IMG/VR virus record: IMGVR_UViG_3300024272_001997
Strand: one strand, 5' to 3'
Length of the DNA stretch: 64,000 bases
Origin: a virus
Lineage: Duplodnaviria; Heunggongvirae; Uroviricota; Caudoviricetes
The notes under the pieces were generated by a model. It was not told where the DNA came from. It was given only the letters and a program-made list of their open reading frames with translations, and searched no databases. This document shows positions 13,961-58,111 of this stretch, piece by piece; positions within the stretch are counted from its first letter, which is position 1, and each line of letters opens with the position of its first letter. Both the position numbers and the translations under genes were made by a program.

Positions 13961-16066
13961 ATGGCAACTCTTCCACCCGATGGGATTTATAGTGGTTTTT
14001 ATATTCGTTATTTTTTTGAAGGCGAAGAAATGACAGGCTACTATGGATCTAGTATGGGCATTTATAAAAGTGGAGATCCCGTCGAAGCGACAGTTACTTC
14101 AGATTGGATTATTAATGGGCCTAATGGCGAAGCTGCTTTATGGTATTGGGATTCAAATTATTAGAATGAAATTCAAATTGGTAGTTCATTAAGTTTTCAA
14201 GCTCATATTTATTTAGATGATGGAATCTCCTTTGGAATTATCATATATGGAAAGAGAATGGATATCAAATTAAAGATGGGTGCGAAGACTGATCTTCCAT
14301 CCAGTAAAAATAAAGGCACAGTATATTTTGCTAAAGATGGAGATAAAAACTTTGGTGAATTATATTATGATGATGAAAATGGCAATCGAGTAAAAATTGG
14401 CGGTAGCAATATTAGCAGCGCTAAATTTAAAATTTAGTATAATTCTAGCAATATTGATTTAGTTGATGGCCTTAGATTAGATTTAACTTTTGAAGATGGA
14501 ACTGTAATAGCTTCTAATTTTTTCCCTGAAGCAACAATATATAACCCTGGTTTAATGATGCCTGCCAAGAATAGTATTACAGAAATCCAATAGATGCCAT
14601 TAGGATTGAAATCTTTTTATCCAGGCATTATAATTGGTACAATGCCTGCATTAGAATTAAATAACGGTTATGCCATTGGAATTGGAGATGCTGCAGTTTT
14701 ATTTGGAGATGATAGTACAGAATATAATAAAGTAGGAATAATTCAAAGTCCAGAAACTTTAATATTAGCTACAGAGGATTAGACCGCAGTGTTTAGTGTA
14801 AGCAATTAGGATAATACTCCAGGAATAGTGGCTATGGCTGGTGATGCAAGTTTTACGCTTGCAGAAGGTTATTTTTGGACAGGTTCCTTAGGAGCTGAAT
14901 CTAATTATATTCCTACTGCTTATATTGAAGAACTTCATTCCACTTCAATCAATGCAGCCCAGTTTGAAGGAGCTTTTGCTGGAGATTTAGAAGGTACAGC
15001 TAGAGATGCAACTTCTTGGACCAATGCAATTCTTTTAAATGGCACTGAAGTTAAAGGCGGAGAAACTGAAGCAATTACTACTGCTAAATGGGGTGCTGAA
15101 CGCAATATCTCTATTTCTGGCACTGCCGGCACAACTGGAACTATTGTTGATGGTTCTAATGAAGATGGTTATACTCTAATCATTCCCGCAACTATGATTG
15201 GTTTCACTAGCATCACTTCTACTAATTTATTGGCAACTAACTTAGGAGCTGCTGGAGCCCCAGTTGAAGTTGCTCATTTTAAAGAAACTTATTTCCATAA
15301 TCCTAATAATAATAACTATAAGCATAAGCTAACAAGTAATGCTGGTTCTGCTGATTGTGAATTACAGCTACCTAATACTTCTGGCTTAATTGTTACTAAG
15401 GCTAGCACTACTGCGGCCGTTGGTGGTCTGAATGCACCAGTGTTTGTTGCTGCGAGCGGTGAAGTTACTGCTTGTTCTACTGTCTCTGTCGAGCATGGTG
15501 GTACTGGCGCTAACTCTTTAAGTGCTTATTCTTTATTATATGGCAATGGAACTAATGCAGTAGGACAGGTTACTCCTATGGCCGCAGGCCGTATTTTAGT
15601 ATCTGGCGGTACTACTTCTGCTCCTCTATATGCTAGCCCAAGTTTAAGTTTCAGCACAGGCGCTTCTAATCCAACTATTAGTTTTGTCATTAATGGTGCT
15701 ACTTATACTTCTACTAATGGCATTCAATCTGCTACTGGCGAAAATCCTGGTCTAGTTTCTACTACTACTCAGACTTTTGCAGGAGCAAAGACTTTTACTG
15801 GAGCTGTTAATTTTAGCGCTGGTATCACAAGTACAACAGGTACATTCTCTGGACAAATCAATGCTACAAACATCAAGTTGAGTGGTCAATTGAAGAGTCA
15901 TTCCGCAGGTACTTCTTATCTAACTTTGACTGATACTAAAGCAACTGTGACTTCTCCAACTGTTTATTTAAATGGTACAACTATCGTTCTAAATTCTAGT
16001 AATTATGGTCCTACTTTACCAACTACTAATTTAGAAGAAGGTCGAATTTTCTTCTTATTGACTTAA
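13961..16066 (+). CDS. Tail fibre/receptor-binding protein, 701 aa with 5 in-frame TAG (Gln)
   Basis: Track ORFs 13961, 14594 and 14828 share one frame and are separated only by TAG (14162, 14435, 14591, 14780, 14807); no TAA/TGA until 16064; AAAGGAGG RBS; LKMG..LP..GTVYF..D fibre motif. Confidence 0.75.
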
Positions 16067-16098
16067 TAAAATCTAGGTGAGAAAGGAGAAAATATACA

Positions 16099-18273
16099 AT
16101 GGCAACTTATGATTGCACTATAAATGGTGTTCGTGCAAGAGTTGCTGCCACTGGAGTCTACTGGTTTGGACCCTCTGGCGGCAACCTAGGCACTTCTACA
16201 ACTGACGATGAAGGTTGGGGCGTTAATGATGGAGAAGATTTCTTCGGTGGAAATGTCAACCCCATGGCTTGTGATCCAAGCGGTAATAGTAAATTTACAG
16301 TTGCTATCAAAGTAACTACTCCAAATTTATCAAATGTTACTATTAGTGCTTTAACAATTACAGTTCAAGGTTTTGACCATACTTACAAAGGTCTTACTTC
16401 TACTTATCCATTATATGCTAGTTTAAGAACTACTTCTACAAGTAGTAGTAGTGATACTTACAGCACTTTTAGAAATTACGCAATTGGAAGTGAGGCTAGT
16501 ACCAGTTCTCTTACTGGAAATTCTCTAAATCTTAATACTTGGTCTCCTACTTTCTACGGATCTTTTTCCCCAAATACTTCATATTATTTATTCTTATATA
16601 CTAAATCTACAAGCCAAATTTATGGTTTTTATCACAGTGGCGCAATTTGCACTGATGCTTATGTTACTTATACTCAAAATGCAGCATCTTATACTGTAAG
16701 TTTGAGTAAAGGTACTGGTATCAGTTCTGTAAGTGGCGGTGGCACTTATACAGAAGGCGATTTAGTAACCATTAGAGCTACTCCATCTTCTGGATATAGC
16801 TTTGTAAACTGGACAGGTTCAGAAACTTCAACCGCAAACCCTTATAGTTTTTATATTTATGGTAATAAGTCTTATACTGCTAACGCAAGTTCTGCGACTT
16901 ATTTAGTTCAATATAAAGCTGGTACTTATGGTTCTGGTACAGAGAGTTCTGTTTATAAAACTCATGGTACAAATTTAACCTTAAAAGGAGTGCAATTCAC
17001 TCGTTCTGGTTATACTCAAACTGATTGGGCTTCTGACGCCGCAGGTACGGTATGGGTAAATACCTTAAATGGAACTTATCAGACAGATGCTCCTGCAACT
17101 TTTTATCCATATTGGACACCCAATGTATATACATTAACCATTAATCCAAATGGTGGTACAATGTATAACGGTGACAATACTACTTCAAGTCCTTTTACCA
17201 CAGAATTCTCTTATGGTACTCTAACTTATATTGGTAATTTAGATAGTTACGAAGGATACTAGCCAGACAATAAGCCAACAAAACCTGGTTATACTTGTAC
17301 TGGATTTACTTTCTCTGGAGGCTCAGGTCAATAGAATACTAGTGGTGCTACTTTCTATTTTATGGGCGATAATCCAGCCGCCGCAATGGTTACTGCTTCT
17401 GATACTCGCTCTTGGGTTTTCAATGGTAATTATGCTGGCAATGTAACTGCGACTGCAGAATGGGTTGGAAATACTTATACTGTTGTTTATAATGCTAATG
17501 GTGGTACTGGTTCTATGGCTAATACATCTCATACTTATGGTGAAGGCTCTAGTTTAAGAACTAATAGTTTTACCCATTCTGGTTATACCTTTACCGGATG
17601 GAATACCAAAGAAGATGGAACAGGAACTACATATGCTAATAATGCTGTAGTAACTGATTTAACAACTACTGCCGGAGGAACTGTTACTTTATACGCTCAA
17701 TGGGGTGAAGCCACTTATACAGTTATTTTCAATCTAAATGGTGGTAGTATTCAAAGTGGTGATTTTAGTAATATGACTTGTGCTCGTAATACTAATTATA
17801 CCATTCCTACTGGAACCATTGCAGCCAATGGCTTAATCTTCTTAGGATGGTCTACATCATCTTCTGCTACGACTGCGACTTATGAAGCTGGAGATACTTT
17901 CAATAATATTGGAGCCGCAGGCGCAACAGTTATTTTATATGCAGTTTGGGATACAAAAGAGTTTACAATTAAATATCATGACAATAGCAATGGTAATACA
18001 TTAAGTGTTAGTTGTATTCCTGCAGCTACCACCAATACTTTTAGAACTCTTCCTTCTGGATGGACGAAGGATGGCTATGAAGCTATTGGTTGGAGTAGAT
18101 CTGCATCTGCCACTTCTCCTGACTATCGATTTGGTCAAGGATTTGTTGATGATTTAGGCGTAGCAGATGGAGCTACTTTAAATTTATATGTTGTTTGGAC
18201 CCTGTAGCAACCATGGACTCTGACTCAATTATATATGTATATTGATTCTAGAGATTCATTTGTTCAATTCTAA
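16099..18273 (+). CDS. Adhesin-like virion protein with InlB B-repeat (Listeria-Bacteroides repeat) domains, 724 aa with 3 in-frame TAG
   Basis: 16099 and 17362 ORFs are in one frame; TAG at 17260, 17332, 18205; TAA at 18271. Repeats of YTV.YNANGG..GYTFTGW..TLYAQW type. Confidence 0.8.
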
Positions 18274-18294
18274 TAAAAAAAAGGGGGATATAAT

Positions 18295-18702
18295 ATGGAC
18301 TGGATGGTTATGTTATATCAAATTTTTGAACTTTGCGTTATTCCTCTCTTGGGTGTATTGACTATGTACTTAGTTCAATTCATTAAAATGAAGAGCCAAG
18401 AAATCGCAGATAAGACTGATAGTGAATTAGCAGATAAGTACATTCAAATGCTTGCTGATACTATCACTACTTGCGTTATCGCAACTAATCAGACTTATGT
18501 TGAATCTTTGAAGAAGCAAGGTAAGTTTGATGCAGAAGCTCAGAAGGAAGCTTTCAATTTGACTTATAATGCAGTTATGTCTGTATTAACTGATGAAGCT
18601 AAGCATTATTTGGCTTCCATTTATGGCGACTTGACCGCCTACATTACTAGTCGTATTGAGGCTGAGGTTAATGTAAGTAAGATTGTTCCTGTTACTGAGT
18701 AA
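18295..18702 (+). CDS. Putative holin (LL-H-like)
   Basis: 135 aa; single N-terminal TM (IPLLGVLTMYLV), charged helical remainder, ends I.SRIEAEV. Confidence 0.55.
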   Translation: MDWMVMLYQIFELCVIPLLGVLTMYLVQFIKMKSQEIADKTDSELADKYIQMLADTITTCVIATNQTYVESLKKQGKFDAEAQKEAFNLTYNAVMSVLTDEAKHYLASIYGDLTAYITSRIEAEVNVSKIVPVTE

Positions 18703-18710
18703 TTGCGGAG

Positions 18711-18755
18711 ATACCCGAAAAATACCTAAAAAGTATTTTTCGGGTATTTTTTTTT
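18711..18755 (+). terminator. Rho-independent terminator
   Basis: ATACCCGAAAAATAC-ctaaaaa-GTATTTTTCGGGTAT plus T-run. Confidence 0.85.
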
Positions 18756-18764
18756 GTCATTCGC

Positions 18765-18896
18765 AGGACCTCAAAAAGTTATGTCCCGGTATTCTTACGG
18801 TCCATTTTTGGTTATTTTTCATTCCAGTCGCGGTCCATTTTCGGTTAGGGTTCGGTCCTCGTTTGGACAAATTAGGGTAATTTTTCGGTCCTAATT
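18765..18896 (+). repeat. Degenerate tandem array of 12 x 11-bp units, consensus about CGGTYHWTTTT
   Basis: GG at unit positions 2-3 in 10 of 12 units; GGWCC at 18766, 18799, 18832, 18854, 18887 (all offsets are multiples of 11). Confidence 0.8.
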
Positions 18897-18956
18897 TTCA
18901 TAAAGCTATGAGGGGATTGGATAAAATATTTTTTGTATGGAGAGGAGACCTTACAT

Positions 18957-19391
18957 ATGTACTCAAACTATAATTATTATCCACAACAACCCTAGCAAGT
19001 CGCCCAATAGCAACCAGTGTACCAACCATTGTCTTACTTACGACAGGCGCCGCCGCAAGCAGGACTGAAAGGACGCTTGGTAGCATCATTGGAAGAGGCC
19101 CGTGCAACCTCTATTGACTTTGATGGTTCTGTATTCTACTTCCCAGATTTAGCGAACAGACGAATCTACACAAAACAAATAAATATGGATGGCACCGCAT
19201 CACTGTGTGTGTATGAATTAAGGGAAATGCCCGTTTAGAGAGAAGAGAGCGGTTCTGTTCCATCCGTTGAGAAATTTGTAACGAGAGAAGAGTTTGAGCA
19301 GGTCCTGGCGCAACTACAAATGCTCCAGAAGCCAACCGAGCCGGCCGTATCTGCCCCCGCAAAAGAAAAAGTAGAATTAATGTCATTCTAA
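18957..19391 (+). CDS. Accessory operon gene 1: Gln/Pro-rich N-terminus, 144 aa, 3 in-frame TAG
   Basis: GAGAGGAG RBS; reads QQP*QVAQ*QP (TAG 18993, 19008) and TAG 19236; FVTREEFE motif; TAA at 19389. Confidence 0.8.
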
Positions 19392-19401
19392 GGAGGTATG
19401 A

Positions 19402-19656
19402 ATGATGTATCCAGTAAACCCAAATAAATTAATCCAAATGATTAAATCCGGGCAAAATCCTCAGCAATTGATGTTATCAATTTTGAAAGGACAAGCCTAT
19501 GATAATCCCCTCGGAAAAAATCTCCTAAATTTAGCTCAATCTGGTCGCACTGTCGAATTAGAGAAAGTAATTCGCAACCTTTACGCCCAGTAGGGCGGTC
19601 AAAATTTCGACCAGGAGTTCGAAGCCTTTAAACGTGCATTAGGCTACAACACTTAA
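19402..19656 (+). CDS. Accessory operon gene 2: small helical Gln/Met-rich protein, 84 aa, 1 in-frame TAG
   Basis: GGAGG RBS; TAG at 19591 read through to TAA at 19654. Confidence 0.75.
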
Positions 19657-19677
19657 AATTTAAGGAGGAAAAAAATT

Positions 19678-20394
19678 ATGTTCAATGGAAAAGGTTATAA
19701 TTTATCTGATATCGCTGCTGTAACCCGTGGAAGTGGTACTGGTTTCGGTGGAGATGGCGACGGCGCATGGTGGCTGTTACTGTTATTCCTGTTTGCGGGA
19801 TGGGGTAATGGTGGCTATGGCGGCGGCCTTGGCGCAGGTAACGCTCGCGACGCTGTTTCTTATGGCTTTGATATCAACAATCTAGAAAATGGAATCCGTG
19901 GACTAGAGCATGGTCTATGCGATGGTTTCTATGACATGAACACTTCTTTGCTAACTGGTTTTGGTAATGTTACTATGGGTAATATGCAGAACACTAACGC
20001 CATTATGGGCCGTTTGTGTGATATGTCCGCAGAGCAAGCTGCTTGTTGCTGCGAAACTCAGCGCTTGATTGAGAGAGGTTTGTGCGAAGTCAACTATAAT
20101 ATCTTGACTCAATCTAACGCAACTAATACTAATATTGCCAATGCCGCGAGAGATATTATTGAAAACAATAATAATGGTGTTCGCTCTATCTTAGACTTCT
20201 TGACTCAGGATAAGATTGCTACTTTGCAGGCTGAAAATCAGGCTTTGCGCTTGACCGCTTCTCAGCAAGCTCAGAACGCTTTCTTGATCGACCAGTTAGG
20301 AACTAAGGCTCCTATTCCTGCATACATGGTAGCTAATCCATATGCTAGCTATGGTTGTGGTATGAACTACTATGCTGGATGTGGCTGCAACTAA
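19678..20394 (+). CDS. Accessory operon gene 3: Gly-rich/hydrophobic N-terminus, CCC motif, coiled coil, Cys/Gly/Tyr tail
   Basis: 238 aa; GGDGDGAWWLLLLFLFAGWG, ACCCETQR, C-terminal YGCGMNYYAGCGCN. Confidence 0.85.
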   Translation: MFNGKGYNLSDIAAVTRGSGTGFGGDGDGAWWLLLLFLFAGWGNGGYGGGLGAGNARDAVSYGFDINNLENGIRGLEHGLCDGFYDMNTSLLTGFGNVTMGNMQNTNAIMGRLCDMSAEQAACCCETQRLIERGLCEVNYNILTQSNATNTNIANAARDIIENNNNGVRSILDFLTQDKIATLQAENQALRLTASQQAQNAFLIDQLGTKAPIPAYMVANPYASYGCGMNYYAGCGCN

Positions 20395-20413
20395 TATCTA
20401 AGGAGGAAAGTAT

Positions 20414-20836
20414 ATGGAAATTATTGCTAATGCTGTTCAAACAGTTCCCGCAAATCAGAATGTTTATTTCACTGATTCTGTTACTTCTGGAAATTATTCT
20501 ATCGAGCATCGTGATGGTAGTGGATTGGTGACTCTTCGCGGAGTCACCAATACTCAGTGCCGCGCCCGTTTTAGAGTACATTTCGGCGCAAATGTCGCGA
20601 TTGCAGAAGGTGGCACCGTCGGACCAATTTCCTTAGCTATCTCTTTGGATGGTGAAGCGGTTCCAGCTACAATTATGACTGTCACCCCTGCCGCAGTTGG
20701 AGATTTCTTCAATGTGAGCGCATCTATCTTTATTGATATTCCAAAAGGATGCTGCTCTCATGTGGCCGTGAAGAATATTTCTACTCAGCCAATTGATGTA
20801 CAAAATGCAAATCTAATTGCTGAACGTTCTGCGTAA
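20414..20836 (+). CDS. Accessory operon gene 4: all-beta protein resembling BclA C-terminal/C1q-TNF-like domain
   Basis: 140 aa; QTVPANQNVYF, FRVHF, LAISLDGEAV, VAVKN..NANLIAER pattern; GCC motif. Confidence 0.6.
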   Translation: MEIIANAVQTVPANQNVYFTDSVTSGNYSIEHRDGSGLVTLRGVTNTQCRARFRVHFGANVAIAEGGTVGPISLAISLDGEAVPATIMTVTPAAVGDFFNVSASIFIDIPKGCCSHVAVKNISTQPIDVQNANLIAERSA

Positions 20837-20847
20837 GGAGGGATAGT

Positions 20848-21429
20848 ATGGACCACGAAAGATTAAAACACATGAAAGAAACTTTAATGTGTGCTGTTGA
20901 AGTACAATTATGTGATTTGGGTGAAGTAGATACTAAAGAGCTTGGAGAAGCTATTGATATGATTAAAGATTTAGAAGAGGCAATCTACTATTGCACCGTT
21001 ACAGAAGCTATGAACAACTCTTCACACGAAATGGAGTTTGAAATGAAAAAAGGCGGCCATCACCAGTAGGAAAATGGTGACAGCCGCATGTATTATGACA
21101 GAAATCGTAGAAGTGATGGTACATTCTATGCTGACAATGATAATTCTTCTTCTTCTGGAATGAATAGTTCTAATGGAAGAAATTATTACGATGACCCAGG
21201 TATGTGGCGCGATGAGCGCGAAGGCCGCAGTTATAATAGTCGTAGAATGTATATGGAAGCCAAGGATATGAAACGAGATAAAGCTACTCAATTGCGTGAG
21301 TTAGAAAAGTATATGCAAGAGCTATCTCTGGATATTACCGAAATGATTGCGGATGCTTCTCCAGAAGAAAAAGCATATCTTGAAAAGAAGATAACCGCAT
21401 TGGCTTCTAAAATTGGTCAAATGAAATGA
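20848..21429 (+). CDS. Accessory operon gene 5: helical protein with low-complexity middle, 193 aa, 1 in-frame TAG
   Basis: 20848 and 21088 ORFs share a frame, joined by TAG at 21067. Confidence 0.8.
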
Positions 21430-21737
21430 TTATAAATGGCGTGCGCTGGCGGGTCCGGTTGGTCTCGCCAGCCCATCCAATGCTACTTACGCCTTGGAGA
21501 ACTCACGCTCTTGGAGTTTGTGATAAAGTCACATAGACTATATGTATAGACAAGACTCTTTCCCCTCAACAACTAAAAGAAGTCTTATGTCATGAATTAG
21601 TTCATGCTTTTATGTTTAGCTATGCTGTGGATTTATCATATGATGAAGAGGAAATGGTAGCAGAGCTTATGACTGAATATGGAGAAGATATATTAGAACG
21701 GACAAACGCGATTTATAATGGTATAAAAATGAAATAA
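21426..21737 (+). CDS. Accessory operon gene 6: small HExxH zinc metallopeptidase-like protein (ImmA/IrrE-like), 103 aa, 1 in-frame TAG
   Basis: Missed by the track; ATG overlaps the TGA of gene 5; TAG at 21534; LCHELVH motif and downstream EE. Confidence 0.75.
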
Positions 21738-21780
21738 GGGTCGATTATGAATAATCATAATCGACCCCTTATTTTTTTTT
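21733..21780. terminator. Bidirectional terminator at the convergence of the two arms
   Basis: AATAAGGGTCGATTATGA-ataa-TCATAATCGACCCCTTATT plus T-run. Confidence 0.8.
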
Positions 21781-21783
21781 GGT

Positions 21784-22242
21784 TTAATCAACAACGTCGT
21801 CATTATCAACTTTTAAGTCTAAAGCCATAGCCTTATCATAATAGATTTTAGCTTGACCGTTGCCACCCAAACCAGTATATAATTTATAGAACTCGGTTAA
21901 CTGTTCCATCTGTGCAGGAGTAATATATCCCTGAGCTAAGAATCCTTTGCATAATTGTACTAAGCGGAAACGATAAGAAGCAATAATCAGATTCATATGA
22001 GTCTTCTCGATGTTCTCAGTTTCTCTGATATATTTTCTTAGTTCCTCTAATTCCTGATATACTGGTTCTAAATGGATCTCAATGGTGTCCTCGACATGTT
22101 GTCTCTCTTGGGCGGCGGCTAATTCTCTAGCGTTTCTTAATTCACGATTCAATTCACGAGTTTTGAACTTAGCATAACCAATTACACCGGCACTGATAAG
22201 AGCAAACAAAATCTCCATACCCCACTCAGCTAATAATTCCAT
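21784..22242 (-). CDS. Membrane protein with C-terminal Y..Y..LGGNG motif (lysis-module-associated type)
   Basis: 152 aa; N-terminal TM, coiled coil, FYKLYTGLGGNG. Confidence 0.55.
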   Translation of the reverse strand: MELLAEWGMEILFALISAGVIGYAKFKTRELNRELRNARELAAAQERQHVEDTIEIHLEPVYQELEELRKYIRETENIEKTHMNLIIASYRFRLVQLCKGFLAQGYITPAQMEQLTEFYKLYTGLGGNGQAKIYYDKAMALDLKVDNDDVVD

Positions 22243-22249
22243 TTAAAGT

Positions 22250-22299
22250 ATCCCCCTTTCTAACTTCTCTGACATTTATAAGAAGTTGGATAGGGGGAT
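22250..22299 (-). promoter_or_regulatory. Hairpin occluding the RBS of the 22242 gene, TATAAAT in the loop
   Basis: Minus strand ATCCCCCT atc c AACTTCT tataaatgtcag AGAAGTT a gaa AGGGGGAT; the right arm is the RBS. Confidence 0.55.
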
Positions 22300-22306
22300 T
22301 TATTAG

Positions 22307-22792
22307 TTAGGACCAATCGAATACTTCGACCTTATTTTTGGTATAATGAGCGCCAATACAAATAGCATCACATTCATCCTGTGTTGGTTTTACATTATAG
22401 GTTTTTACAACCCAATCTTGTGCGGCTTTCTTCTAGGCTGGACGATCTTTTCCCTTGATACCAAGAGAAGATTTCCAGACGGTAGAAAGAACGGCGGTTC
22501 GAGGCATTTTCATTTCAACAAATAATTCATGTAAAACGCCAAATACCTCAGCCAATGCTTTAAAGGTGGCTACATTATTGACAACATTATTTTGAAGTTG
22601 AATATCTTCAAAGACGACTTCGTCAATATCAAACTTCTCAATTAAACCAATAACTTCCTTGCGAATAAAGTGAAGTCTATCTCCAACATCGGTTTGAGTT
22701 GCGGAGAACTTGCCATAATTGTAAAGTTCACCATCATCAAATACTGCCCAACCAGTCACGCGACTGGCCTGGTCCAATGCAAGAGTTCTCAC
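22307..22792 (-). CDS. ruvC: RuvC-like Holliday junction resolvase, 161 aa, 1 in-frame TAG
   Basis: LALDQAS..TGWA and VVFED motifs; the last acidic motif DECDAICIG appears only after reading through TAG at 22433-22435. Confidence 0.85.
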
Positions 22793-23851: not shown

Positions 23852-24341
23852 CTACCTGAACTAAGCCACTATCATAAGGGAACAGATATAGACAGGTTGG
23901 GCCGTCATCTGTTTCCACCCAAATCTCCACGGCAGTGCCAGGTTCGTCGGGGTCAATGGCTTTAATTTTTCCCACATTTCGCAGACAATCAAGAACCTCT
24001 TGTGCGAAATACTGAGGCTCAATTAGTTTGAATACAGTAAAATAAGAAATCTCTTTACCGTAAAGCATATAGTATTTATTACGATACATTTCATGTAATG
24101 CTTCAATGGTTTGGATTGCCTTATTTAAATCAGCCAACTCAGGAAGCTGGGCGATAATTTGTTTATTCAAATCATATAGACCTAAATTCAAGCCTGCGCC
24201 ATCAGTTCTCATTGTAACCCAATGACCGTCATGATATACGCGAATTTCACCTGAAATGGAATCTTGAATTACTTCTCCTTCCATTGGTTCAAAATTGACT
24301 TGTGAAAGGTCCATTTTCTTGACAGTGAGTTTACTTCCCAT
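23844..24341 (-). CDS. Hypothetical protein
   Basis: 165 aa, AAGGAGG RBS. Confidence 0.75.
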   Translation of the reverse strand: MGSKLTVKKMDLSQVNFEPMEGEVIQDSISGEIRVYHDGHWVTMRTDGAGLNLGLYDLNKQIIAQLPELADLNKAIQTIEALHEMYRNKYYMLYGKEISYFTVFKLIEPQYFAQEVLDCLRNVGKIKAIDPDEPGTAVEIWVETDDGPTCLYLFPYDSGLVQVGE

Positions 24342-48420: not shown

Positions 48421-48792
48421 TTAGCCTATAAGCGTGGGTTCAAAATGCTCATAATCATGATGTGGAATGGCTAAAATTTCACCAATTTTCAAAAAATTGA
48501 GTCTTGGTACAATATGCAATCCATCCATTTGCAATTCACTTGGAGCAACAATACTATTCATTTTTACTCCTTTACTTTGACAGAGTAAATCAAAAGTATC
48601 TTCACTCATATAATAATCATAATTATGTGCATATTCATAATGGCGATTTAGAAAACCTTTTAGACTTTCTAAATTTACCACCTGAGATTGAACTCTGTCT
48701 TCATGATAAGAACTTACAAGCGCATCTTTATCATCTAGCTCGTCCCAACCAATAGAGTTGGGACGGCTATAATATTCACTCAAAATCATCAT
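48421..48792 (-). CDS. Hypothetical protein
   Basis: 123 aa, overlaps the gyrA stop. Confidence 0.6.
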   Translation of the reverse strand: MMILSEYYSRPNSIGWDELDDKDALVSSYHEDRVQSQVVNLESLKGFLNRHYEYAHNYDYYMSEDTFDLLCQSKGVKMNSIVAPSELQMDGLHIVPRLNFLKIGEILAIPHHDYEHFEPTLIG

Positions 48793-51164
48793 ACTTTACT
48801 TACAGAAAGAACCTTATTTCCTTTGATTACTTGATTACCGATTGAAGGACGGCCCAAAGTGGGAATTTCAGATGCTTCAATACAAATACTGCTCTTATCA
48901 CCCAAAATCAAGATACTATCCCCATCCTCAATTAAGGTTGCCGCACTTACCATTCCAGTAGAATCAGTAGGCTTGTAGCACATTAGACCCTTACCTCCAC
49001 GCTTCTGGATTGGTAATTCAGACAGGTCAAACTTCTTAGCCAGACCATTCTGAACAAAAATTGCTAACTTATCAGTCTTATTGCGGATTGGAACTGCGCT
49101 GACTACCTTATCTTCGGCGCCCAAGGTAATACCCTTTACACCAGAAGTGGTTCTAGAAGTAGCTCCAATTTCCTTAGAATCAAAATGGATACCATAACCC
49201 TTTTCAGTTACGATAATCAAAGGTTCATCCTTGATTAGAGAAACAGCAGCCAGCTCATCGCCCTCTTTGATAGTGATTGCGGCAATGCCAGTCTTCTTCT
49301 TGGTCTTGACATATTCATCTAAAGCGGTCTTTTTGACCAAACCATTCTTGGTCACGAACAGGACATATTGAGCATCAGTATCACGATAGATAGAATACAT
49401 CACCGCAGGCTGTTCATCCATCTCCATATTGATTAGAGATTTGATAGAAGTGCCCTTACTTACATTAGTTCCTACTGGAACATCATTTACAAGTAGACGA
49501 TACATCTTACCCTTGTTACTGAAAATCATCAGAGAATCAATAGTATTGGTGCGGATAACAGCATGAGTAATGTCATCTTGAGTCTTTACACCTTTACCAT
49601 TTCTCTTCTGGGTGCGGAAACTGGTTGCGGGGATGCGCTTGACAAGACCACCTTCGGTCATAATAACAACGCACTTTTCAGGTTCAACGAACTCAATTTC
49701 CTTTTCTTCCTTAGTGGAAGCGACCTGGGTTATAGTACTTCTACGAGCATCACCATAAAGCTTTTTAAGTTCGGTGAATTCTTCCACAAGTGATGGAGTT
49801 GGATTCTTAAGAATATTCTCCAATCGCTGGGACTCAAGAATTTTTTCATTTCTCTCAGTTTCAATTTCAACCTTCTCCAATTTAGCCAACTTAGAAAGCT
49901 TCATATCTAAGATTGCCTTTGCCTGGGCTTCAGAGAAGTTATACTGGCTCATAAGCGCAGTTTTAGCAGCGGCCGCACTTTCAGACTTTTTGATAAGTGC
50001 GATAATATTATCAATATTTTCTAGTGCCTTTAACAGACCCTCTAAAATATGGATTCGTGCGGCAATCTTATCTAATTCAAACTTTGTTTTTCTTAGTAGA
50101 ACATCCTTTTGGTGATCAATATAAATCTCCAAAAGTTGCTTGATATTCAATAGTTGAGGCTTTTTATCCACAAGGGCAACTTGATTGAAACTGTAAGTAT
50201 CTTCCAATCGTGTGAGCTTGAATAATTTTGCGATAATCGGTTCAGTAGAAACTCCTTTAGCAACTTCAATAACAAAGCGCACACCATCTTTATTGGATTC
50301 ATCTCGAATTGCGGTAATACCTTCTAACTTACCTTCTTCGCAGAGCTTATCAATCTCTTTTACAAGGTCTTCTTTAGAAACTTTGTAGGGAATGGAAGTA
50401 AAAACGATACTATCACTTTTCTTATCAGATTCAACAACATATTCGCCCCGAATCCTTGCTCTGCCCTTACCCATTAGGTAAGCTGCGGGCAGTTCGTCCT
50501 TATTGATAATTGTTCCGCCGGTGGGAAAGTCAGGTCCAGAAATGTAATTCAAAATTTCCTTGATATCACATTCAGGGTTCTGCGCGACATGGATAGCCGC
50601 ATCCATAACTTCATTCATATTGTGAGGGGCGAAACTACAAGCCATCGCAACAGCAATGCCAGAAGTACCATTAACAATCAAGTTAGGAACTCGACCGGGT
50701 AGATAAATAGGCTCTTGCTCTTCATCAGTATAAGCGTTCTGCCAATCTACTGTATCTTTCTTGATGTCTGCTAACATTTCTTCGCCAGCCTTAGATAGCT
50801 TACACTCAGTATAACGATAAGCAGCGGGTTCATCACCATCTCTACTACCATTATTGCCATGGAATTGAATCAGCGGATATCGCATATTCCAAGGCTGACT
50901 CAACCAGACCAGCGCACCATAAATAGAACTGTCACCATGAGGATGGAAACGGCCCATGGTGTCACCGACGGGCTGGGCGCACTTTACAAATTTCTTATTA
51001 TTCATATAGCCTTTGTCGAACATATCCCAAAGGATACGACGAGCAACAGGCTTCAAACCATCTTCTGCGGAAGGGATGGCTCTGTCTGTGATGACACTCA
51101 AACTGTAATCAAGGAAACTTTGTTCAACTTCCCTGATGATCGGTGTCTGAATTATGTCTCCCAT
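48789..51164 (-). CDS. gyrA: DNA gyrase subunit A
   Basis: DGLKPV, HPHGD, AAYRYTE catalytic Tyr, GyrA-box QKRNGKG, beta-pinwheel repeats. Confidence 0.95.
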   Translation of the reverse strand: MGDIIQTPIIREVEQSFLDYSLSVITDRAIPSAEDGLKPVARRILWDMFDKGYMNNKKFVKCAQPVGDTMGRFHPHGDSSIYGALVWLSQPWNMRYPLIQFHGNNGSRDGDEPAAYRYTECKLSKAGEEMLADIKKDTVDWQNAYTDEEQEPIYLPGRVPNLIVNGTSGIAVAMACSFAPHNMNEVMDAAIHVAQNPECDIKEILNYISGPDFPTGGTIINKDELPAAYLMGKGRARIRGEYVVESDKKSDSIVFTSIPYKVSKEDLVKEIDKLCEEGKLEGITAIRDESNKDGVRFVIEVAKGVSTEPIIAKLFKLTRLEDTYSFNQVALVDKKPQLLNIKQLLEIYIDHQKDVLLRKTKFELDKIAARIHILEGLLKALENIDNIIALIKKSESAAAAKTALMSQYNFSEAQAKAILDMKLSKLAKLEKVEIETERNEKILESQRLENILKNPTPSLVEEFTELKKLYGDARRSTITQVASTKEEKEIEFVEPEKCVVIMTEGGLVKRIPATSFRTQKRNGKGVKTQDDITHAVIRTNTIDSLMIFSNKGKMYRLLVNDVPVGTNVSKGTSIKSLINMEMDEQPAVMYSIYRDTDAQYVLFVTKNGLVKKTALDEYVKTKKKTGIAAITIKEGDELAAVSLIKDEPLIIVTEKGYGIHFDSKEIGATSRTTSGVKGITLGAEDKVVSAVPIRNKTDKLAIFVQNGLAKKFDLSELPIQKRGGKGLMCYKPTDSTGMVSAATLIEDGDSILILGDKSSICIEASEIPTLGRPSIGNQVIKGNKVLSVSKV

Positions 51165-51423
51165 AAGGAACCTCCTTTACATCTACAAATTGATCGAAAA
51201 ACTCATTCATCGTTTGAGGTAAAGTTCGATCTATAACATCTTCAATTATTTTAAGTAATGTCTCAGTTGGGTAACGCGCATCAAGCCAAGGTTTTTCTGT
51301 GGAAATGGCAGGAATTGGCATATATTTTCTTTCCAAATCTATTGACCAATCTTGACTTTTAGGCTTGACAAGTGTGCGTCTTTCTTTCCAATCAACTATA
51401 TGTGGCATATGCTTCTTCCTCAC
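51124..51423 (-). CDS. Hypothetical protein
   Basis: 99 aa between rnh and gyrA. Confidence 0.5.
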   Translation of the reverse strand: MRKKHMPHIVDWKERRTLVKPKSQDWSIDLERKYMPIPAISTEKPWLDARYPTETLLKIIEDVIDRTLPQTMNEFFDQFVDVKEVPYGRHNSDTDHQGS

Positions 51424-51868
51424 TAATATATCCAGTAGCCAATTGGTCGGCTAGTTCATTCCACTCATGTCCATTATGACCTTTAATTTTTCTCAAATCA
51501 ATGCGGTAACCTTCTTTGTACCAGTCATAATATGCTTGAATCAAATCCAGATTTTCTGGTTTTTGCTTATCACTTTTAATCCAGCCTCGTCTTGCCCAGT
51601 TGAACATCCACTCATTGAATGTATTCACGCAATATGCAGAGTCGCTATATACGATCGGTGGCTGGCCCCAATCATCGCACTTCTCTCCGTAATTGAGCAT
51701 TACATATAAAATTGCTTTTAGTTCTTCTCGATTATTTGTGGTATCATTGGATCTCTTGGCTCGAACAAATTGAACAGAACCATTATCATCGACACCAACG
51801 ATACCATAACCACCTTTTGCATTGGCCTTACCATTGCCAATACAGGAACCATCAGTGTAAAAAGTCAT
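51392..51868 (-). CDS. rnhA: Ribonuclease HI
   Basis: YTDGS, TNNREEL, SDSAY, KGH..NELADQLA. Confidence 0.92.
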   Translation of the reverse strand: MTFYTDGSCIGNGKANAKGGYGIVGVDDNGSVQFVRAKRSNDTTNNREELKAILYVMLNYGEKCDDWGQPPIVYSDSAYCVNTFNEWMFNWARRGWIKSDKQKPENLDLIQAYYDWYKEGYRIDLRKIKGHNGHEWNELADQLATGYISEEEAYATYS

Positions 51869-52301
51869 TTGGATGTCCTTTCAAAATATCGTCAATTATT
51901 TTATCAATATCTACTTCTTCAGCAATATCAACAATGGAACTAACTTCTTTAGTTCCTTTTAGAACAGTCATTCCCTTCAACACTTGCTCATTACAAAGCA
52001 TTACAGTATTATTAGGAAATGCTTCTTGTAATTCTTTTAGAATGTTTTGGCAATCACTCAATTTCATATTCGCAGAAATATGACATAACAGCACATCACC
52101 AGGGTCAAGAGATACTTTTTGAATTTTATATCCCTCCCAAGTTCCAGTTATTCCATCCTGCTTCACAGAAGCAGGCGGAATATAATTTGGATTTACTGCT
52201 GTTGTAGAGCGATTATTCAAATAACTATAAGGAGTGCCGGTACTATACGCGTTAGTTAAGCCAGCATAAATTTCTCTTTCTTTTTGGTATCCATTATACA
52301 T
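51852..52301 (-). CDS. Hypothetical protein
   Basis: 149 aa from ATG 52301. Confidence 0.6.
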   Translation of the reverse strand: MYNGYQKEREIYAGLTNAYSTGTPYSYLNNRSTTAVNPNYIPPASVKQDGITGTWEGYKIQKVSLDPGDVLLCHISANMKLSDCQNILKELQEAFPNNTVMLCNEQVLKGMTVLKGTKEVSSIVDIAEEVDIDKIIDDILKGHPNDFLH

Positions 52302-54189
52302 CGATATTCGCCCTTTCTGCATTGTCCTCGATAAATTTCTTACGAGGAGTGACTGATTCGCCCATCAAGCTCATGAAGACATTAGCAACGGAGGCCGCAT
52401 CTTCCATAGTAATCTGCTTCAAGGTACGAGTGTTTGGATTCATAACAGTTTCTGCCATTTCTTCGGGGTCCATTTCGCCCAGACCTTTCATACGACCAAG
52501 TTCAAATTTCTTTGTATTAGTCTTACGGAAGGCTTCAAGAGCTGGGTCATCTTTCAGATACTGAATCTTAGTTCCCATAGTAACCTTATAAAGTGGAGGA
52601 ACTGCCGCATAAATATAACCCTTATCCAAAAGATCAGGACAGAACTTCCAAATGAAAGTTAAGAACAAAACACGAATGTGAGAACCGTCAACATCAGCAT
52701 CAGCAGTAATGATAAACTTACCATATCTCAACTTAGATTCGTCAACAATGATTTTACCATCCTTGACCTCTAAGCCAAAAGCGTCAACCATACCGTTAAT
52801 TTCCTTATTTTGAAGCGCTTTATGTAAATCGCATTTCAAAACATTTAAAGGTTTACCTCTTAGCTGGAATACTGCCTGAGTGCCACGATCTCGCGCTTCT
52901 TTAGTAGAACCCGCTGCGGACTTACCCTCAACGATAAATACTTCACACTTTGCACGATCCTTAGAACTGGCATCTGCCAGAACGTCAGGCATCACAACTC
53001 TGCGCTTGGCGTCAACCTTACGGACGGTTTCCTTGGCCTTCTTTGCCTTTTCGCGGGCCGCACGTGCCAAGAGTGCTTTATCAACTATTGCTTTTGCATC
53101 TTTTGGATTTGCGTCCAGCCAAATTTTAATTTCCTTAGAAACTAAGCGTTGGACTGCGGTTCTTGCTTCACTACTGGAAAGAACATCCTTAGTCTGACCA
53201 GAGAAAACGGGGTCAGGCATGATGAAAGACAAGACCAGAACTAAACCTTCTTTCAATTCTTCGCCAGTGATATTAGCATCTTTTTCCTTCAATAGCTTAT
53301 TTTCACGAGCATAATCATTGACAGTAGAAGTTAGTGCAGTTCTGAAACCTGTTAAGTGAGTTCCTGCGCTATTGGGAATGGAGTTAGTATATAATTTATA
53401 TACATCGGTGTAAGTATCATTATATTGCATGGCAATTTTTACACCGATTCTATCTTCCATACTTTCAGTATAAAATACGGAAGTAAGTTTAGTTCTTTCT
53501 CTATTGAGATCATCAATGTAATCTCTAATGCCATTTTTGGAGGTAATATATTCAGTTTCATTACCCTCAAAATTCAAAACAAAATTCATACCAGGAGAGA
53601 GATATGCTAACTCCTGGATTTGCTTCTTTAAAGCAGTATAATCAAGATGAATACCCTCCTTGAAAATGGTTTCATCAGGAAGGAAAGTTACTGTAGTGCC
53701 AGTTTTTACTCCACGGGCAGTATTTTCATTATAACTTATCAATTCACCTTTCTTAAATTTAGCAATAGCCAATTTTCCTTCTCTCAAAGAACGAACTTCA
53801 AAAGTTTCAGAAAGGGCATTAGTTGCCTTAGCACCAACACCATTCATACCGCCAGAAGTATTATAACCAGTTTTACCTTCACTATCGAATTTTGCACCAG
53901 TATGAAGTTTAGTATAAACATTTACAAGAACTTCACTACCATCTTCTGCTTTACCAAAGGGGACGCCACGACCATTATCTTCAATCTCAATGGTGCCATC
54001 TTTGCTTACGGTAATAGCACATTCAGTACAATATCCGTTTAAATATTCATCAACAGCATTAGAAATGATTTCGAGTGTAATATGTCTAACACCTGCAGGA
54101 CCGACTGAGCCTACATACATACCTGGACGCAGGCGAATCGCTTCGATACCTTCAAGCGTTTTTATGTCTTTTACGCCATAATCTAACAT
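52294..54189 (-). CDS. gyrB: DNA gyrase subunit B
   Basis: RPGMY, EIISNAVDE, GMNGVG, VEGKSA, DADVDG, KGLGEM. Confidence 0.95.
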   Translation of the reverse strand: MLDYGVKDIKTLEGIEAIRLRPGMYVGSVGPAGVRHITLEIISNAVDEYLNGYCTECAITVSKDGTIEIEDNGRGVPFGKAEDGSEVLVNVYTKLHTGAKFDSEGKTGYNTSGGMNGVGAKATNALSETFEVRSLREGKLAIAKFKKGELISYNENTARGVKTGTTVTFLPDETIFKEGIHLDYTALKKQIQELAYLSPGMNFVLNFEGNETEYITSKNGIRDYIDDLNRERTKLTSVFYTESMEDRIGVKIAMQYNDTYTDVYKLYTNSIPNSAGTHLTGFRTALTSTVNDYARENKLLKEKDANITGEELKEGLVLVLSFIMPDPVFSGQTKDVLSSSEARTAVQRLVSKEIKIWLDANPKDAKAIVDKALLARAAREKAKKAKETVRKVDAKRRVVMPDVLADASSKDRAKCEVFIVEGKSAAGSTKEARDRGTQAVFQLRGKPLNVLKCDLHKALQNKEINGMVDAFGLEVKDGKIIVDESKLRYGKFIITADADVDGSHIRVLFLTFIWKFCPDLLDKGYIYAAVPPLYKVTMGTKIQYLKDDPALEAFRKTNTKKFELGRMKGLGEMDPEEMAETVMNPNTRTLKQITMEDAASVANVFMSLMGESVTPRKKFIEDNAERANIDV

Positions 54190-54234
54190 ATCGTTCTCCT
54201 TTCAAATTTCCTTAGATTTTTTTCTTATGTGTAT

Positions 54235-54263
54235 ATTATACCATTATTTTTTTGAAAAATCAA
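54235..54263 (-). promoter_or_regulatory. SigmaA-type promoter for gyrB
   Basis: TTGATT-17-TATAAT. Confidence 0.75.
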
Positions 54264-54358
54264 GTATTTTGTTAGCAAGGATTTGATAGGTCAAAAAATA
54301 ATATTATAATGATAATAAATTTGATTTACAATGAAAGAAGATAAGGGAGGGGATTATA

Positions 54359-54523
54359 TTGTCTTTATTAGAGAAAATATAGCTTATAGTAGGATGTTAT
54401 TATTTATCAGACTTACGTTTTCAACCTTATAATTTAATTGCAAAATGGATTTTCAGGATTGTAAGTCTTGAAAATTACACGCAAAAAGAAATTGATGATG
54501 CATATAATTATATTTTTGAGTAA
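54359..54523 (+). CDS. Small 54-aa protein on the opposite strand, TTG start, 1 in-frame TAG
   Basis: GGGAGGGG RBS; MSLLEKI*LIVGCYYLSDLRFQ..YIFE; TAA followed by a terminator. Confidence 0.6.
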
Positions 54524-54567
54524 AAAAAAATAAAGCCGAGTAGATAAAATATCTACTCGGCTTTATT
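54522..54567. terminator. Terminator between convergent genes (U-tract on minus; may act bidirectionally)
   Basis: AATAAAGCCGAGTAGAT-aaaat-ATCTACTCGGCTTTATT with A-run on the left. Confidence 0.8.
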
Positions 54568-54572
54568 GTCAT

Positions 54573-54902
54573 TTAACCGCAGGCATCGTCTACGAATTCT
54601 TCTTCTGGGACAGGTGGGGCATTATCCTGAGTTAGTAATTGTTGCATTACGCTTTCATATTTTATGCCACCCTTAGTATTTTCTTTTTCGGCTTTTTTAT
54701 AATATGCTTGTTGACTGATAGCATATGCGCCCCAAGGACAAGCTGCCATAGCAGTGACCCAAGGTAATTCACCGAAATATTGATTTATGATACAAACGAA
54801 GGCTAAAATAATGAAAGCAATAGTAACTAACCAAATAAGCGCTGATTCTTGAACCAGTAGCTTTTTGGAAAATTCCATTTTTTCTTTCTTCTTATCAGCC
54901 AT
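54573..54902 (-). CDS. Putative holin
   Basis: Two TMs, EFSKK..Y.KKAEKEN; coupled to the endolysin stop. Confidence 0.6.
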   Translation of the reverse strand: MADKKKEKMEFSKKLLVQESALIWLVTIAFIILAFVCIINQYFGELPWVTAMAACPWGAYAISQQAYYKKAEKENTKGGIKYESVMQQLLTQDNAPPVPEEEFVDDACG

Positions 54903-56572
54903 TACTTTTTAGCTTCAATCTTCTTGGTGAAATCTAGGCAAATCCAGCCAGAACCATTTTTCATCTTGCCCCAGCCATCTTTTTCATCAATGATGGTGTA
55001 TAACTGGTTCTGCTTTACTTGAGTATTAACTTTGTAATTAGTACCTGCGCCCGCACGTACATTTACTACATCACCGGTAATCATTATGACGTAAGCTTCA
55101 AAACCAGGAGCAGTAGCTAATTCAGAATCATATTCTTTCAAATACTTCTTATCAACAATACCGCTAATAGGACCGGTCTTTACAGTAGAAATAGTGATAT
55201 TATCTCCATTGATCTTACGAACAAATAATTTTTTACCAAACATCCAAGAGGCTACAGATTTACCATTGGTAAATACAGCATCATTAGTTAGCATGACTTC
55301 CATGCCAGGCTCTAATTTTAATTCCTCTTCTGGAACAATAATAGTATTTTCACTCATTTTATTTACAGCCTCCTTAATAGCTTTTTTAGTTAAAGGTCCG
55401 ACGATACCATCATCGTCTAGGTTATTCTTTCTTTGGAAGTCAATAACTGCGGCATATGTCTTAGAACCAAAATCTCCATCTGGTCCTTTAGAACCAACAT
55501 TATAACCCAATTTAACTAACCATTCTTGTAACTCTCTTACGTCTTCACCAGTATCACCAATGCTTAAAACATCATTGTTAATAGATGGAGTTGGAGTTGG
55601 TGTAGGAGTTACAGAGCTTCCACCGCCAAAAGTAGTACGAGGAGCTTCATTCTGTCCATACCAGAAAGATTTCTTATCTCTAGTATCGACGTGAGTAAAA
55701 TGTCCATCAGCACTGGTTTCATATAAACCAATACCTTTAATTCCAATACTTTCAGCATATTTTGCTACTTCTCTTGGAGCAACTCCCTAAACAACAATAT
55801 CAGCAGCATCACCTTTAGAGTGACGAGAGCCAGTAGCGCCACCAATACGCTTATTGTGAACTGGACATCTGTATCCACTAGTTACAGTGATAGATTTACC
55901 AAAATGGTCTCTAATTTTTTGAACATATTCAACTAATTTAGGGTTGATAATGGTCTCAGAGCAGCAGCCAGAACCATGACAATCGAACTCTAAAGAGTTG
56001 AAGTTTTCAGATAACTTAGTCTTTTGACCCTTTTTATAAGTATTAGTAGCCATAGTAGTATTTTCAACTCCTTTTACATATTTATCATAATACACTTGGC
56101 CCATTGCGGCACGCTTGGATTTTTGAGCGGCTGCATTAGCAGGTCTTTCAAAATTCATAAGAACTACATCGGATGCTTGCTGAACTGTAGTAGCATTTAC
56201 TAAAATATTATAAACTGAATTCTTATAAGAGGTTTTCAATTCCTTTATTAAAAATTCTAACTACATTTCCAAATCTCCAATGGATTTCTTCTTGGACTTT
56301 GCATAGTTTAATAGATTTTCCTTACGAGACCAATAAGTCCATTGAGCCAAGCCATATCCTGCAGAGTCACGCACAAAGTTGGTATATGTTCCATTATCAA
56401 CTTTTGCGGTATACTCGGCATCGCTTAGTCCCAAAGAACGACTATATGTATCTTGTAAGTTATTGGGGCGAAGGGCAGATTCGGCGTCTAAATTTCCCAT
56501 CAGACCGGCTACACCGAAATCGCTAAAGCCTTCTTTCTTTAGAAAATCCCAAATGATTTTACTATTAGACAT
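54902..56572 (-). CDS. Multidomain endolysin (phage lysozyme-2-like + peptidase M15 + PG-binding + SH3b), 556 aa, 2 in-frame TAG
   Basis: Three track ORFs share one frame, joined by TAG at 56261 and 55787; GLMGNLDAES..GYGLAQWT, SGYRC..SRHSKGDAAD..HVD, DGDFGSKT, VNVRAGAG..GW. Confidence 0.9.
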
Positions 56573-56594
56573 TCCTCTTCCTCCTTTAGATATG

Positions 56595-56627
56595 AAATAT
56601 CCCCAATGGGAAGACCCATCGGGGATA
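56595..56627 (-). terminator. Hairpin between phoH and the endolysin
   Basis: TATCCCCGATGGG-tctt-CCCATTGGGGATA, short U-tract. Confidence 0.6.
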
Positions 56628-56631
56628 ATAA

Positions 56632-57867
56632 TTACATTTTTTCAGCAATACGAGCGATTTTAGAACGATGAATATTTTTCAAAGTAATTTCACCGTATAT
56701 ATCTTCGCCACGATAAACTTGAGAAGCTCGCTTCATACCATTACTACTACCAGCAAAGTGAATATCATCAACCTGTGCTTTACAGTCACCATCAATAATA
56801 CAAATGCTATCTTCACCGATACGTTGTAATGTTAGTTTCATCAGCTCAATATCTAAGTTTTGAGCCTCAGAAATATAAATGCCAGCTTTCATTCCAGTAG
56901 TATCATAACCACGAATATCAGATAGTGGAAGCAAAATTAATTTTTCGTCGTTAATCATTTGTTCAACAGCAATACGACCACCAAATTTACTAATTAAAAG
57001 ATTACCAATTTGAGAATCTAATAACTTTTCATCCCTGGTACCAGGATAATAACCCAATTTAGCAGAATTCTTAGTTGCTACAGTATTACAGAACACAATA
57101 ATTTTATCAATGCGATTGCGTTCCAGCTTATGTAACAAGAAGCCTAGACTAATGAAAGTTTTACCGGTTCCCGCAGGTCCCTTAATCATAGTAATTTTGT
57201 TATTACTCAAGCTGTCGAAAGCCAAGGATTGATAAGCATCACTTTTCATTGGCTTGACATTGCCGAAATAATTAGAGTTGAATGAGTCATACGATAAATG
57301 ACGATAACCTTCACCTGTCCAGCATAGTCTATCCACTAACTCACCTGTCTCTTGGTCATACACTAACAAATATTCATTTATATATAAGTCAAATAAATTC
57401 TTATTCATATTAGAATAAAAATTACTCATAGCTTCAGAATCTAAATATACCTCTTTATATCCGTCATAATCATATGCTTCTTCTTGATATGATTCAACGG
57501 GAATGGGTAATACAGTTCTTGCTAAATGCTTACAGCATAAATCATTTGTTACGAAAATTACTTCATCGTCTTGGTGGTTACGAGCGAACCAGTCAGCGCA
57601 AGCAATAATTTTACCATCTTCATTAGACAATAAACTTAGTGCAAAATCACTGCTCCAAATAACGATTTCATAATCTCCATAGTGTTGATCCAATTCATGG
57701 ACTACTTTGCGGGCCGCAAACTTTACATCTGGGTCTTTATTTGCGGAAGTCTTGATATGTTCTAATTCTTCTAATGTAATGGAAGAAATGACCAAAGTAC
57801 AATCTTCGTCCCATAAATGGTTTGCTTTTAGAAGTAAAGAACAAGTGTCATAAAATTTATACATCAT
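56632..57867 (-). CDS. phoH: PIN-domain PhoH-like ATPase
   Basis: FYDTCSLL..DGKI..TND (PIN); GPAGTGKT; SEAQN..RIG..GD. Confidence 0.9.
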   Translation of the reverse strand: MMYKFYDTCSLLLKANHLWDEDCTLVISSITLEELEHIKTSANKDPDVKFAARKVVHELDQHYGDYEIVIWSSDFALSLLSNEDGKIIACADWFARNHQDDEVIFVTNDLCCKHLARTVLPIPVESYQEEAYDYDGYKEVYLDSEAMSNFYSNMNKNLFDLYINEYLLVYDQETGELVDRLCWTGEGYRHLSYDSFNSNYFGNVKPMKSDAYQSLAFDSLSNNKITMIKGPAGTGKTFISLGFLLHKLERNRIDKIIVFCNTVATKNSAKLGYYPGTRDEKLLDSQIGNLLISKFGGRIAVEQMINDEKLILLPLSDIRGYDTTGMKAGIYISEAQNLDIELMKLTLQRIGEDSICIIDGDCKAQVDDIHFAGSSNGMKRASQVYRGEDIYGEITLKNIHRSKIARIAEKM

Positions 57868-58111
57868 CTTCAATAACCTCTTCTTCCTCTTGGTCGTCGT
57901 CAGGAACTTGGAAGCCAATCTATCTCGTAGGAGGGTCTTGGTCAGCAGAGGCAGCGTCCTGACGCATCTTAATGTTCGCTTTGTTTACAATTTCACTTTG
58001 TTTGGATTTTTTTGCTTCAACCCAGGTTAAAAACCAGGCACTTACTCCATCAATAATAGGAATGACGTATGAAACAAATATAATTCCAAGGATAAAATAC
58101 AATAATTCCAT
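57857..58111 (-). CDS. Small membrane protein with acidic tail, 84 aa, 1 in-frame TAG
   Basis: GGGGGAG RBS; TAG at 57920 read through to TAA at 57857, which overlaps the phoH start. Confidence 0.7.

Follow-up and report, generated by a model that had tools for sequence, protein, structure and literature searches.

The amber codon is a sense codon inside 11 conserved genes of the phage represented by IMG/VR record IMGVR_UViG_3300024272_001997 (Caudoviricetes), and this phage very probably translates UAG as glutamine (Gln, Q), that is, by genetic code 15. The analysis covered a stretch of 64,000 nucleotides, hereafter the window. Comparisons were made mainly with the IMG/VR relatives G002 and G001, which show 80-82% identity in the RecJ protein on contigs of 171-177 kilobases (kb), and with G004 (63% RecJ identity), which is complete with terminal repeats and uses the standard code.

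Reading TAG as a sense codon joined same-frame open reading frames (ORFs) at 22 robust in-frame TAGs across 11 genes, without intervening TAA or TGA. These genes encode two tail-fibre proteins, four small late proteins, RuvC, RecJ, a GIY-YIG nuclease, an endolysin and a small membrane protein (Table 1). An earlier sequence-only reading had described 23 TAGs in 12 genes, joining fragments with no TAA or TGA between them. The uninterrupted joining was confirmed, and 22 of these TAGs in 11 of the genes were borne out; the remaining one is probably among the TAGs that were rejected here. The latter, at 23863, 23854, 34177, 44735, 62011 and probably 51453, were not counted; they lie upstream of likely starts, in a frame overlapping the preceding gene.

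Table 1. Genes of the window with in-frame TAG codons read as sense, and the one gene ending at TAG. Minus-strand TAGs given as a single coordinate are designated by the highest base of the codon; lengths are in amino acids (aa).
Product	Position	Strand	Sense TAGs	Remarks
Tail-fibre-like protein, 701 aa	13961..16066	+	14162, 14435, 14591, 14780, 14807	
InlB/Listeria-Bacteroides-repeat tail/receptor-binding protein, 724 aa	16099..18273	+	17260, 17332, 18205	
Small Gln-rich protein	18933..19391	+	18993, 19008, 19236	phrog_21718; exact start uncertain
84-aa protein	19402..19656	+	19591	Column is TAG in G001 and G002, Q in standard-code G004
193-aa protein	20848..21429	+	21067	Relatives align through; column E or K
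HExxH (HELVH) metallopeptidase-like protein, 103 aa	21426..21737	+	21534	phrog_1233, Peptidase_M78
RuvC-like Holliday junction resolvase, 161 aa	22307..22792	-	22433-22435	Spanned by PHROG 159, PHROG 827 and Pfam RuvC
RecJ-like single-stranded DNA exonuclease, 597 aa	34440..36233	-	36069-36071 (residue 55)	
GIY-YIG homing-endonuclease-like protein, 319 aa	44723..45682	-	45601, 45568, 45334	Pfam GIY-YIG
Multidomain endolysin (lysozyme, M15 peptidase, PG_binding_1, SH3_3), 556 aa	54902..56572	-	56263, 55789	
Membrane protein with acidic tail, 96 aa	57857..58147	-	57920-57922	
Zinc-ribbon protein, 85 aa	61932..62189	-		Table-11 end is a TAG; ambiguous, leaky terminator or 30-aa extension

Conserved domains run through the TAG positions. 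Restoration of essential motifs by read-through had been claimed for three proteins and was found in each of them. The RuvC match spans residues 4-144, with the DECD motif after the TAG at 120; the Peptidase_M15_3 match of the endolysin (199-296) crosses the TAG at 262 and regains the third Zn ligand; and the HELVH motif of the metallopeptidase-like protein is found at residue 56, past the TAG at 37. The other endolysin TAG, at residue 104, is crossed by the Phage_lysozyme2 match (residues 3-165). For RecJ, the phrog_2484 match extends over residues 18-594 (E = 5e-153) and includes the TAG, and the phrog_21718 match occupies residues 7-139 of the small Gln-rich product, across its TAGs. In the 724-aa protein, Pfam Flg_new and Flg_new_2 matches flank the TAGs on both sides. 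All five TAGs of the 701-aa fibre are located in its N-terminal third, and its residues 1-330 are matched by homologues of full length (about 690-700 aa). Beyond the TAG of the 96-aa membrane protein, the tail (IGF followed by an acidic run) is kept as protein in G001 and G002.

Homologue columns at individual TAGs were then inspected. Homologues of the 724-aa protein (721-724 aa, uninterrupted, 76-94% identity) carry Q at residues 388 and 412 and mostly Q at 703, and three of them, at 88-94% identity, show Q at all three TAG positions. For the 701-aa fibre, 13 of 25 homologues carry Q at residue 211, and the column at 274 contains Q or E. Both G001 and G002 have Q opposite the TAG at 21534, the endolysin TAG at 56263 faces Q in G001, G002 and G004, and the RuvC homologues have Q, Q and E; at 19008, the TAG itself is shared by G001 and G002. 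The relatives' own TAGs in RecJ sit elsewhere, opposite Q residues of the window (for example in the AVEQVL and LIQIDSDCDG stretches), and their GIY-YIG genes likewise contain many TAGs opposite window Q.

The signal is specific to TAG. In a greedy tiling of the window, the 83 ORFs of code 11 became 69 when TAG was read as sense; the TGA-sense and TAA-sense readings yielded 84 and 78, respectively. The TAG-sense reading raised the coding density of G001 (0.856 to 0.951) and G002 (0.889 to 0.962) and left standard-code G004 unchanged. Code 15 was thus favoured in the comparison of tables 15 and 11 suggested by the sequence-only reading, by fewer ORFs in the window and by higher coding density in G001 and G002.

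TAG is also essentially unused as a terminator. About 60 genes terminate at TAA or TGA and no confidently called gene at TAG; with TAG stops as frequent as in G004 (9.4%), finding none in 60 genes would have a probability of P = 0.003. Since only the TAG-sense reading merges ORFs and since TAG terminators are missing at this P value, chance was excluded. As had been noted before, the zinc-ribbon gene at 61932-62189 is the sole gene ending at TAG. Its orthologues have TAA or TGA stops 4-10 residues further on, with no conserved tail beyond. A separate observation concerns the G001 copy of this gene (G001:148096-148344), in which an in-frame TAA or TGA takes the place of an Arg of the other genomes (GMH*KKLYC vs GMHRKKLYC); this could reflect a pseudogene, a sequencing error or something else.

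The amino acid inserted at TAG was assessed from aligned residues, with the tally confined to the gene frames of the window, as a six-frame version was polluted by non-coding frames of homologous DNA. Opposite 68 in-frame TAGs of relatives, the window residues were Q in 33 cases, K in 6, N in 6, E, S and D in 4 each, A in 3, and a few others. Where these relatives have ordinary Gln codons, the window showed Q in 54%, K in 9% and E in 7% of cases. At short evolutionary distance, TAG aligns preferentially with its one-step neighbours. Mutational proximity was nevertheless rejected as the cause of the Q enrichment, because the window codons facing the relatives' TAGs at Q are mostly CAA (24, against 9 CAG), which is two changes from TAG. 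Log-likelihoods were calculated with an empirical substitution table from the same alignments. For the relatives' TAGs, Q scored -143, and the runners-up were E (-225) and K (-230). At 21 TAG columns of the window itself, the closest informative homologue had Q in 9 and E in 5, with a log-likelihood of -46.8 for Q vs -63.8 for E. Enrichment for Gln in homologue columns, on which the earlier assignment of TAG to glutamine depended, was thus obtained for the window's TAGs and the relatives' TAGs alike, and these alignments point to glutamine as by far the best-fitting amino acid.

No tRNA was found anywhere within the 64-kb window, and the earlier statement that neither a suppressor tRNA nor a release factor is visible there stands, as the window holds no decoding machinery. 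In the full genomes of the closest relatives, two of the elements that had been named as worth searching for, a tRNA with anticodon CUA and release factor 2 (RF2), are present. G006, a 402-kb contig in which G001 and G002 are joined with a tRNA array ahead of each, contains two arrays of about 40 tRNAs each. Two adjacent CUA-anticodon tRNAs occur in each of three arrays, namely both of G006 and that of G010. The G001 and G002 contigs themselves contain no tRNA, which is a contig-end artefact: the last bases of G002 overlap G010 at 100% identity and G010 runs on into the tRNA array, and G001 begins just past the equivalent place.

All CUA tRNAs fold as cloverleaves with anticodon loop CUCUAAA, and all have U1, a G-rich acceptor stem (G2-G5), discriminator G73 and an encoded CCA. 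These acceptor features are common to the tRNA-Gln(CUG/UUG) genes of the same arrays. Base 1 is unpaired in three of four distinct versions. In bacterial tRNA-Gln, U1-A72 and G73 serve as identity elements for glutaminyl-tRNA synthetase (GlnRS) and GatCAB; amber suppressors, moreover, readily accept glutamine. One of the tandem tRNAs of G006 (L093:2265-2361, minus strand) is unusual in being 97 nucleotides long, with an extra hairpin in the variable region; the 7-base loop of this hairpin, CUCUGAC, equals the anticodon loop of the array's tRNA-Gln(CUG).

An RF2 gene is located beside one relative's array (L097:1420-2502, minus strand; G006:22886 region). Its product of 360 aa contains the SPF tripeptide and the GGQ motif, and the gene is a single open frame without a programmed frameshift site. 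At the same place in G001, this gene is precisely absent. The relative's tRNA-CUA region is present in samples containing the window, both at 100% identity and as variants with the anticodon preserved; this shows co-occurrence of related phages only.

In the mechanism proposed, UAG would be decoded by phage-encoded CUA-anticodon tRNAs carried on a large tRNA island outside the window, by analogy with the closest relatives. With their tRNA-Gln-like acceptor ends, these tRNAs would be charged by host GlnRS, or by a non-discriminating glutamyl-tRNA synthetase and then GatCAB; this charging step is deduced from the acceptor ends. In some lineages, phage RF2 may in addition shift termination towards TAA and TGA.

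TAG use in the window is light. The robust TAGs amount to about 1.1 per 1000 codons (1.4 by tiling count), with 3.2 in the orthologous regions of G002 and 5.0 in those of G001, and TAG makes up about 3-4% of Gln-type codons in the window vs 10-15% in the orthologous regions of G001 and G002. The distribution is uneven: 14 of the 22 TAGs fall within the 2476 codons of 13961-21737, the block of tail-fibre and small late genes (odds ratio 12.7, Fisher P = 2e-8), and the others in the RuvC, RecJ, GIY-YIG, endolysin and membrane protein genes. Free of TAG are the large replication genes (DNA polymerase, topoisomerase II, NrdD, ligase, helicase), the gene for a 2156-aa tail protein and the holin gene. 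The NrdD, polymerase and helicase genes of relatives do contain TAGs, so that an early/late partition is only loosely visible here.

Across the wider clade, recoding is patchy. L098, a 176-kb contig binned in a metagenome-assembled genome (MAG), is clearly recoded. For G004, code 15 brought no gain, TAG terminators are in use and no CUA tRNA was found. In the arrays of a distant relative, G005 (42% RecJ identity; array loci L027-L054), both CUA and UCA tRNAs were observed, that is, suppressors for two different stops.

Several observations weigh against decoding of TAG as glutamine in the way described. The CUA tRNAs were observed in the genomes of relatives of this phage. Similarity of the tRNA bodies gives no Gln assignment, the best non-suppressor matches (0.71-0.72) being Phe and Gln alike. 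Taken singly, several TAG columns are uninformative because of their variability (T, E, V, P, L). Finally, as the TAG of the zinc-ribbon gene lies near the ends of its orthologues, TAG may keep some terminator function.

Decoding as glutamate or another amino acid has in its favour that E is the second-best fit, being the nearest-homologue residue at 5 of 21 window TAG columns. In Bacillota, tRNA-Gln is first charged with Glu, and a suppressor escaping GatCAB would insert Glu. The likelihood gap between Q and E is however large for both sets of TAGs, the residues facing TAGs (48% Q, followed by K, N, E, S and D) match those facing ordinary Q codons, and each of the three TAGs in the 724-aa protein is replaced by Q in near-identical homologues; we therefore consider this alternative very unlikely. 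It is very improbable that TAG is still a stop and that the interrupted genes are pseudogenes, separately translated split genes or assembly errors. Several fragments do have their own start codons under table 11, which otherwise leaves a formal possibility only, but the interruptions are all TAG and never TAA or TGA, the segments between TAGs are kept as protein in relatives, truncation would remove catalytic motifs, the same genes in relatives have TAGs at different positions, and no confidently called gene terminates in TAG. Pyrrolysine deserves hardly any credence. The automatic 'tRNA-Pyl' label given by ARAGORN to anticodon CUA is its sole support, whereas in the CUA tRNAs the D loops are ordinary, the T loops are of GTTCGA type, the anticodon stems have 5 bp and the acceptor ends are Gln-like, and the TAG columns match Gln and not Lys-like or unique positions.

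A further proposal retains glutamine as the amino acid and adds a temporal component, in which TAG stops or gates translation early, before suppressor tRNA accumulates, and is read as Gln later. On this view, translation of the genes with TAGs would be delayed, and the TAG at the end of 61932-62189 could be a real stop. Such a model has been proposed for recoded phages by Borges et al. (bioRxiv 10.1101/2021.08.26.457843). The concentration of TAGs in the tail-fibre and late-gene block, the TAGs of the endolysin, their absence from the large replication genes and the one gene stopping at TAG near the ends of its orthologues are consistent with it. The partition is however not clean, as RecJ, RuvC and the GIY-YIG nuclease have TAGs and the 2156-aa tail protein and holin do not, and as relatives have TAGs in NrdD, DNA polymerase and helicase genes; we regard early gating as possible, though doubtful. 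With similar caution, and somewhat more hesitantly, it may be suggested that codon capture in this lineage is at a stage of low usage, in which TAG may still terminate at least one gene before the suppressor tRNAs are expressed. Translation of UAG as glutamine is retained as the best explanation.

The window has a G+C content of 38.8%. Genes are directed along the plus strand from 1 to 21737 and along the minus strand from 21784 to 64000. Encoded in the plus-strand block are large tail-type proteins (one of 2156 aa), the two fibre/receptor-binding proteins, a holin (phrog_13712) and small products. The module on the minus strand serves replication and nucleotide metabolism; its products include a DnaE-type DNA polymerase, both NrdD and two subunits of topoisomerase II, NAD-dependent ligase, DnaB-type helicase, RecJ, RuvC, PhoH and the multidomain endolysin. 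The lysis genes are split across these modules: the holin (18295-18702, plus strand) is right behind the tail-fibre genes and the endolysin is 36 kb off, with a PIN-PhoH gene on one side and replication genes on the other. In the gene for a superfamily 1 (Dda/RecD-like) helicase (32952-33110, minus strand), the Walker A motif is interrupted, IAGYA being followed by TAA and the motif continuing as GTGKST in a different frame, about 8 extra bases later. This is not a TAG event; the orthologues in G001, G002 and G004 have an unbroken GYAGTGKST.

The nearest deposited phages are SPbeta-like Bacillus phages, with a polymerase identity of only 39%, and a megablast search of the deposited phage collection with the TAG-rich block gave no nucleotide match. 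Scans of IMG/VR and JGI metagenome contigs for exact matches to the window were negative, and a search for identical proteins pointed to many Logan contigs. Relatives were binned with MAGs of Acutalibacteraceae, Clostridium, Bacilli and Lachnospiraceae, and the sequencing runs containing the window sequence are animal faecal and gut metagenomes. The phage is an uncultured herbivore-gut phage of about 200 kb with replication genes distantly related to those of SPbeta; its host is probably a Bacillota bacterium.

Recoding of TAG to Gln is itself already well known in phages and the principle is not new. Code 15 gut phages, including crAss-like and Lak phages, were demonstrated by metaproteomics (Peters et al. 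2022, PMC9523058) and surveyed by Borges et al., with crAss-like, Lak, Agate, Garnet and phAss-1 phages as known cases. Like the crAss-like and Lak phages, the phage described here has in-frame TAGs in structural, lysis and some replication genes, TAGs aligning with Gln, a phage tRNA-CUA (here in relatives) and a host presumably using the standard code. Unlike them, it has an unrelated backbone (SPbeta-like DnaE-type polymerase, topoisomerase II, NrdD), its likely host belongs to Bacillota and not Bacteroidota, and its TAG use is very sparse, at about 3% of Gln-type codons.

The Agate clade comprises large phages of cattle and pig guts using codes 11, 15 and 4, with RF2 in two TAG-recoded members (10.1101/2021.08.26.457843). 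The window has no terminase, and the likeness to this clade is circumstantial. It consists of the herbivore-gut source, a size well above 100 kb, the occurrence of different codes in closely related phages and the presence of RF2 in one phage with recoded TAG. In size, the genomes studied here (about 175-200 kb) differ from the reported 154 +/- 27 kb. The genome of phAss-1, of the proposed Phassvirus, was described as 136 kb long, with 41 ORFs containing TAG and with several genes for suppressor tRNAs (Babkin et al. 2023, PMC10607447). Both are gut phages with TAG-containing ORFs, but the window has no nucleotide match in the phage collection and its best polymerase matches there are SPbeta-like Bacillus phages, at 39%. 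With SPbeta and phi3T, the window shares a homologue of the YorL-type DNA polymerase III alpha subunit (about 39% identity over 99% of the length) and very large tail proteins, whereas SPbeta-like phages use the standard code, are about 130 kb and lack an island of about 40 tRNAs.

The chief value of the finding is correct annotation, together with a lightly recoded member in a clade that ranges from standard code to heavy TAG use. Calling with table 11 cuts or truncates 11 genes, including the two receptor-binding/tail-fibre proteins and the endolysin, and database proteins for the group are consequently truncated. The phages reading TAG as Gln are joined by a herbivore-gut clade that is SPbeta-like, associated with Bacillota and about 200 kb in genome size, and that allows direct comparison of members with the standard code, light recoding and heavy recoding. 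Such a comparison bears on stop-codon capture and on whether recoding times the expression of late genes. If low-usage capture with early termination were true, the phage would use two codes in sequence, and TAG would act as a timing gate for tail fibres and endolysin.

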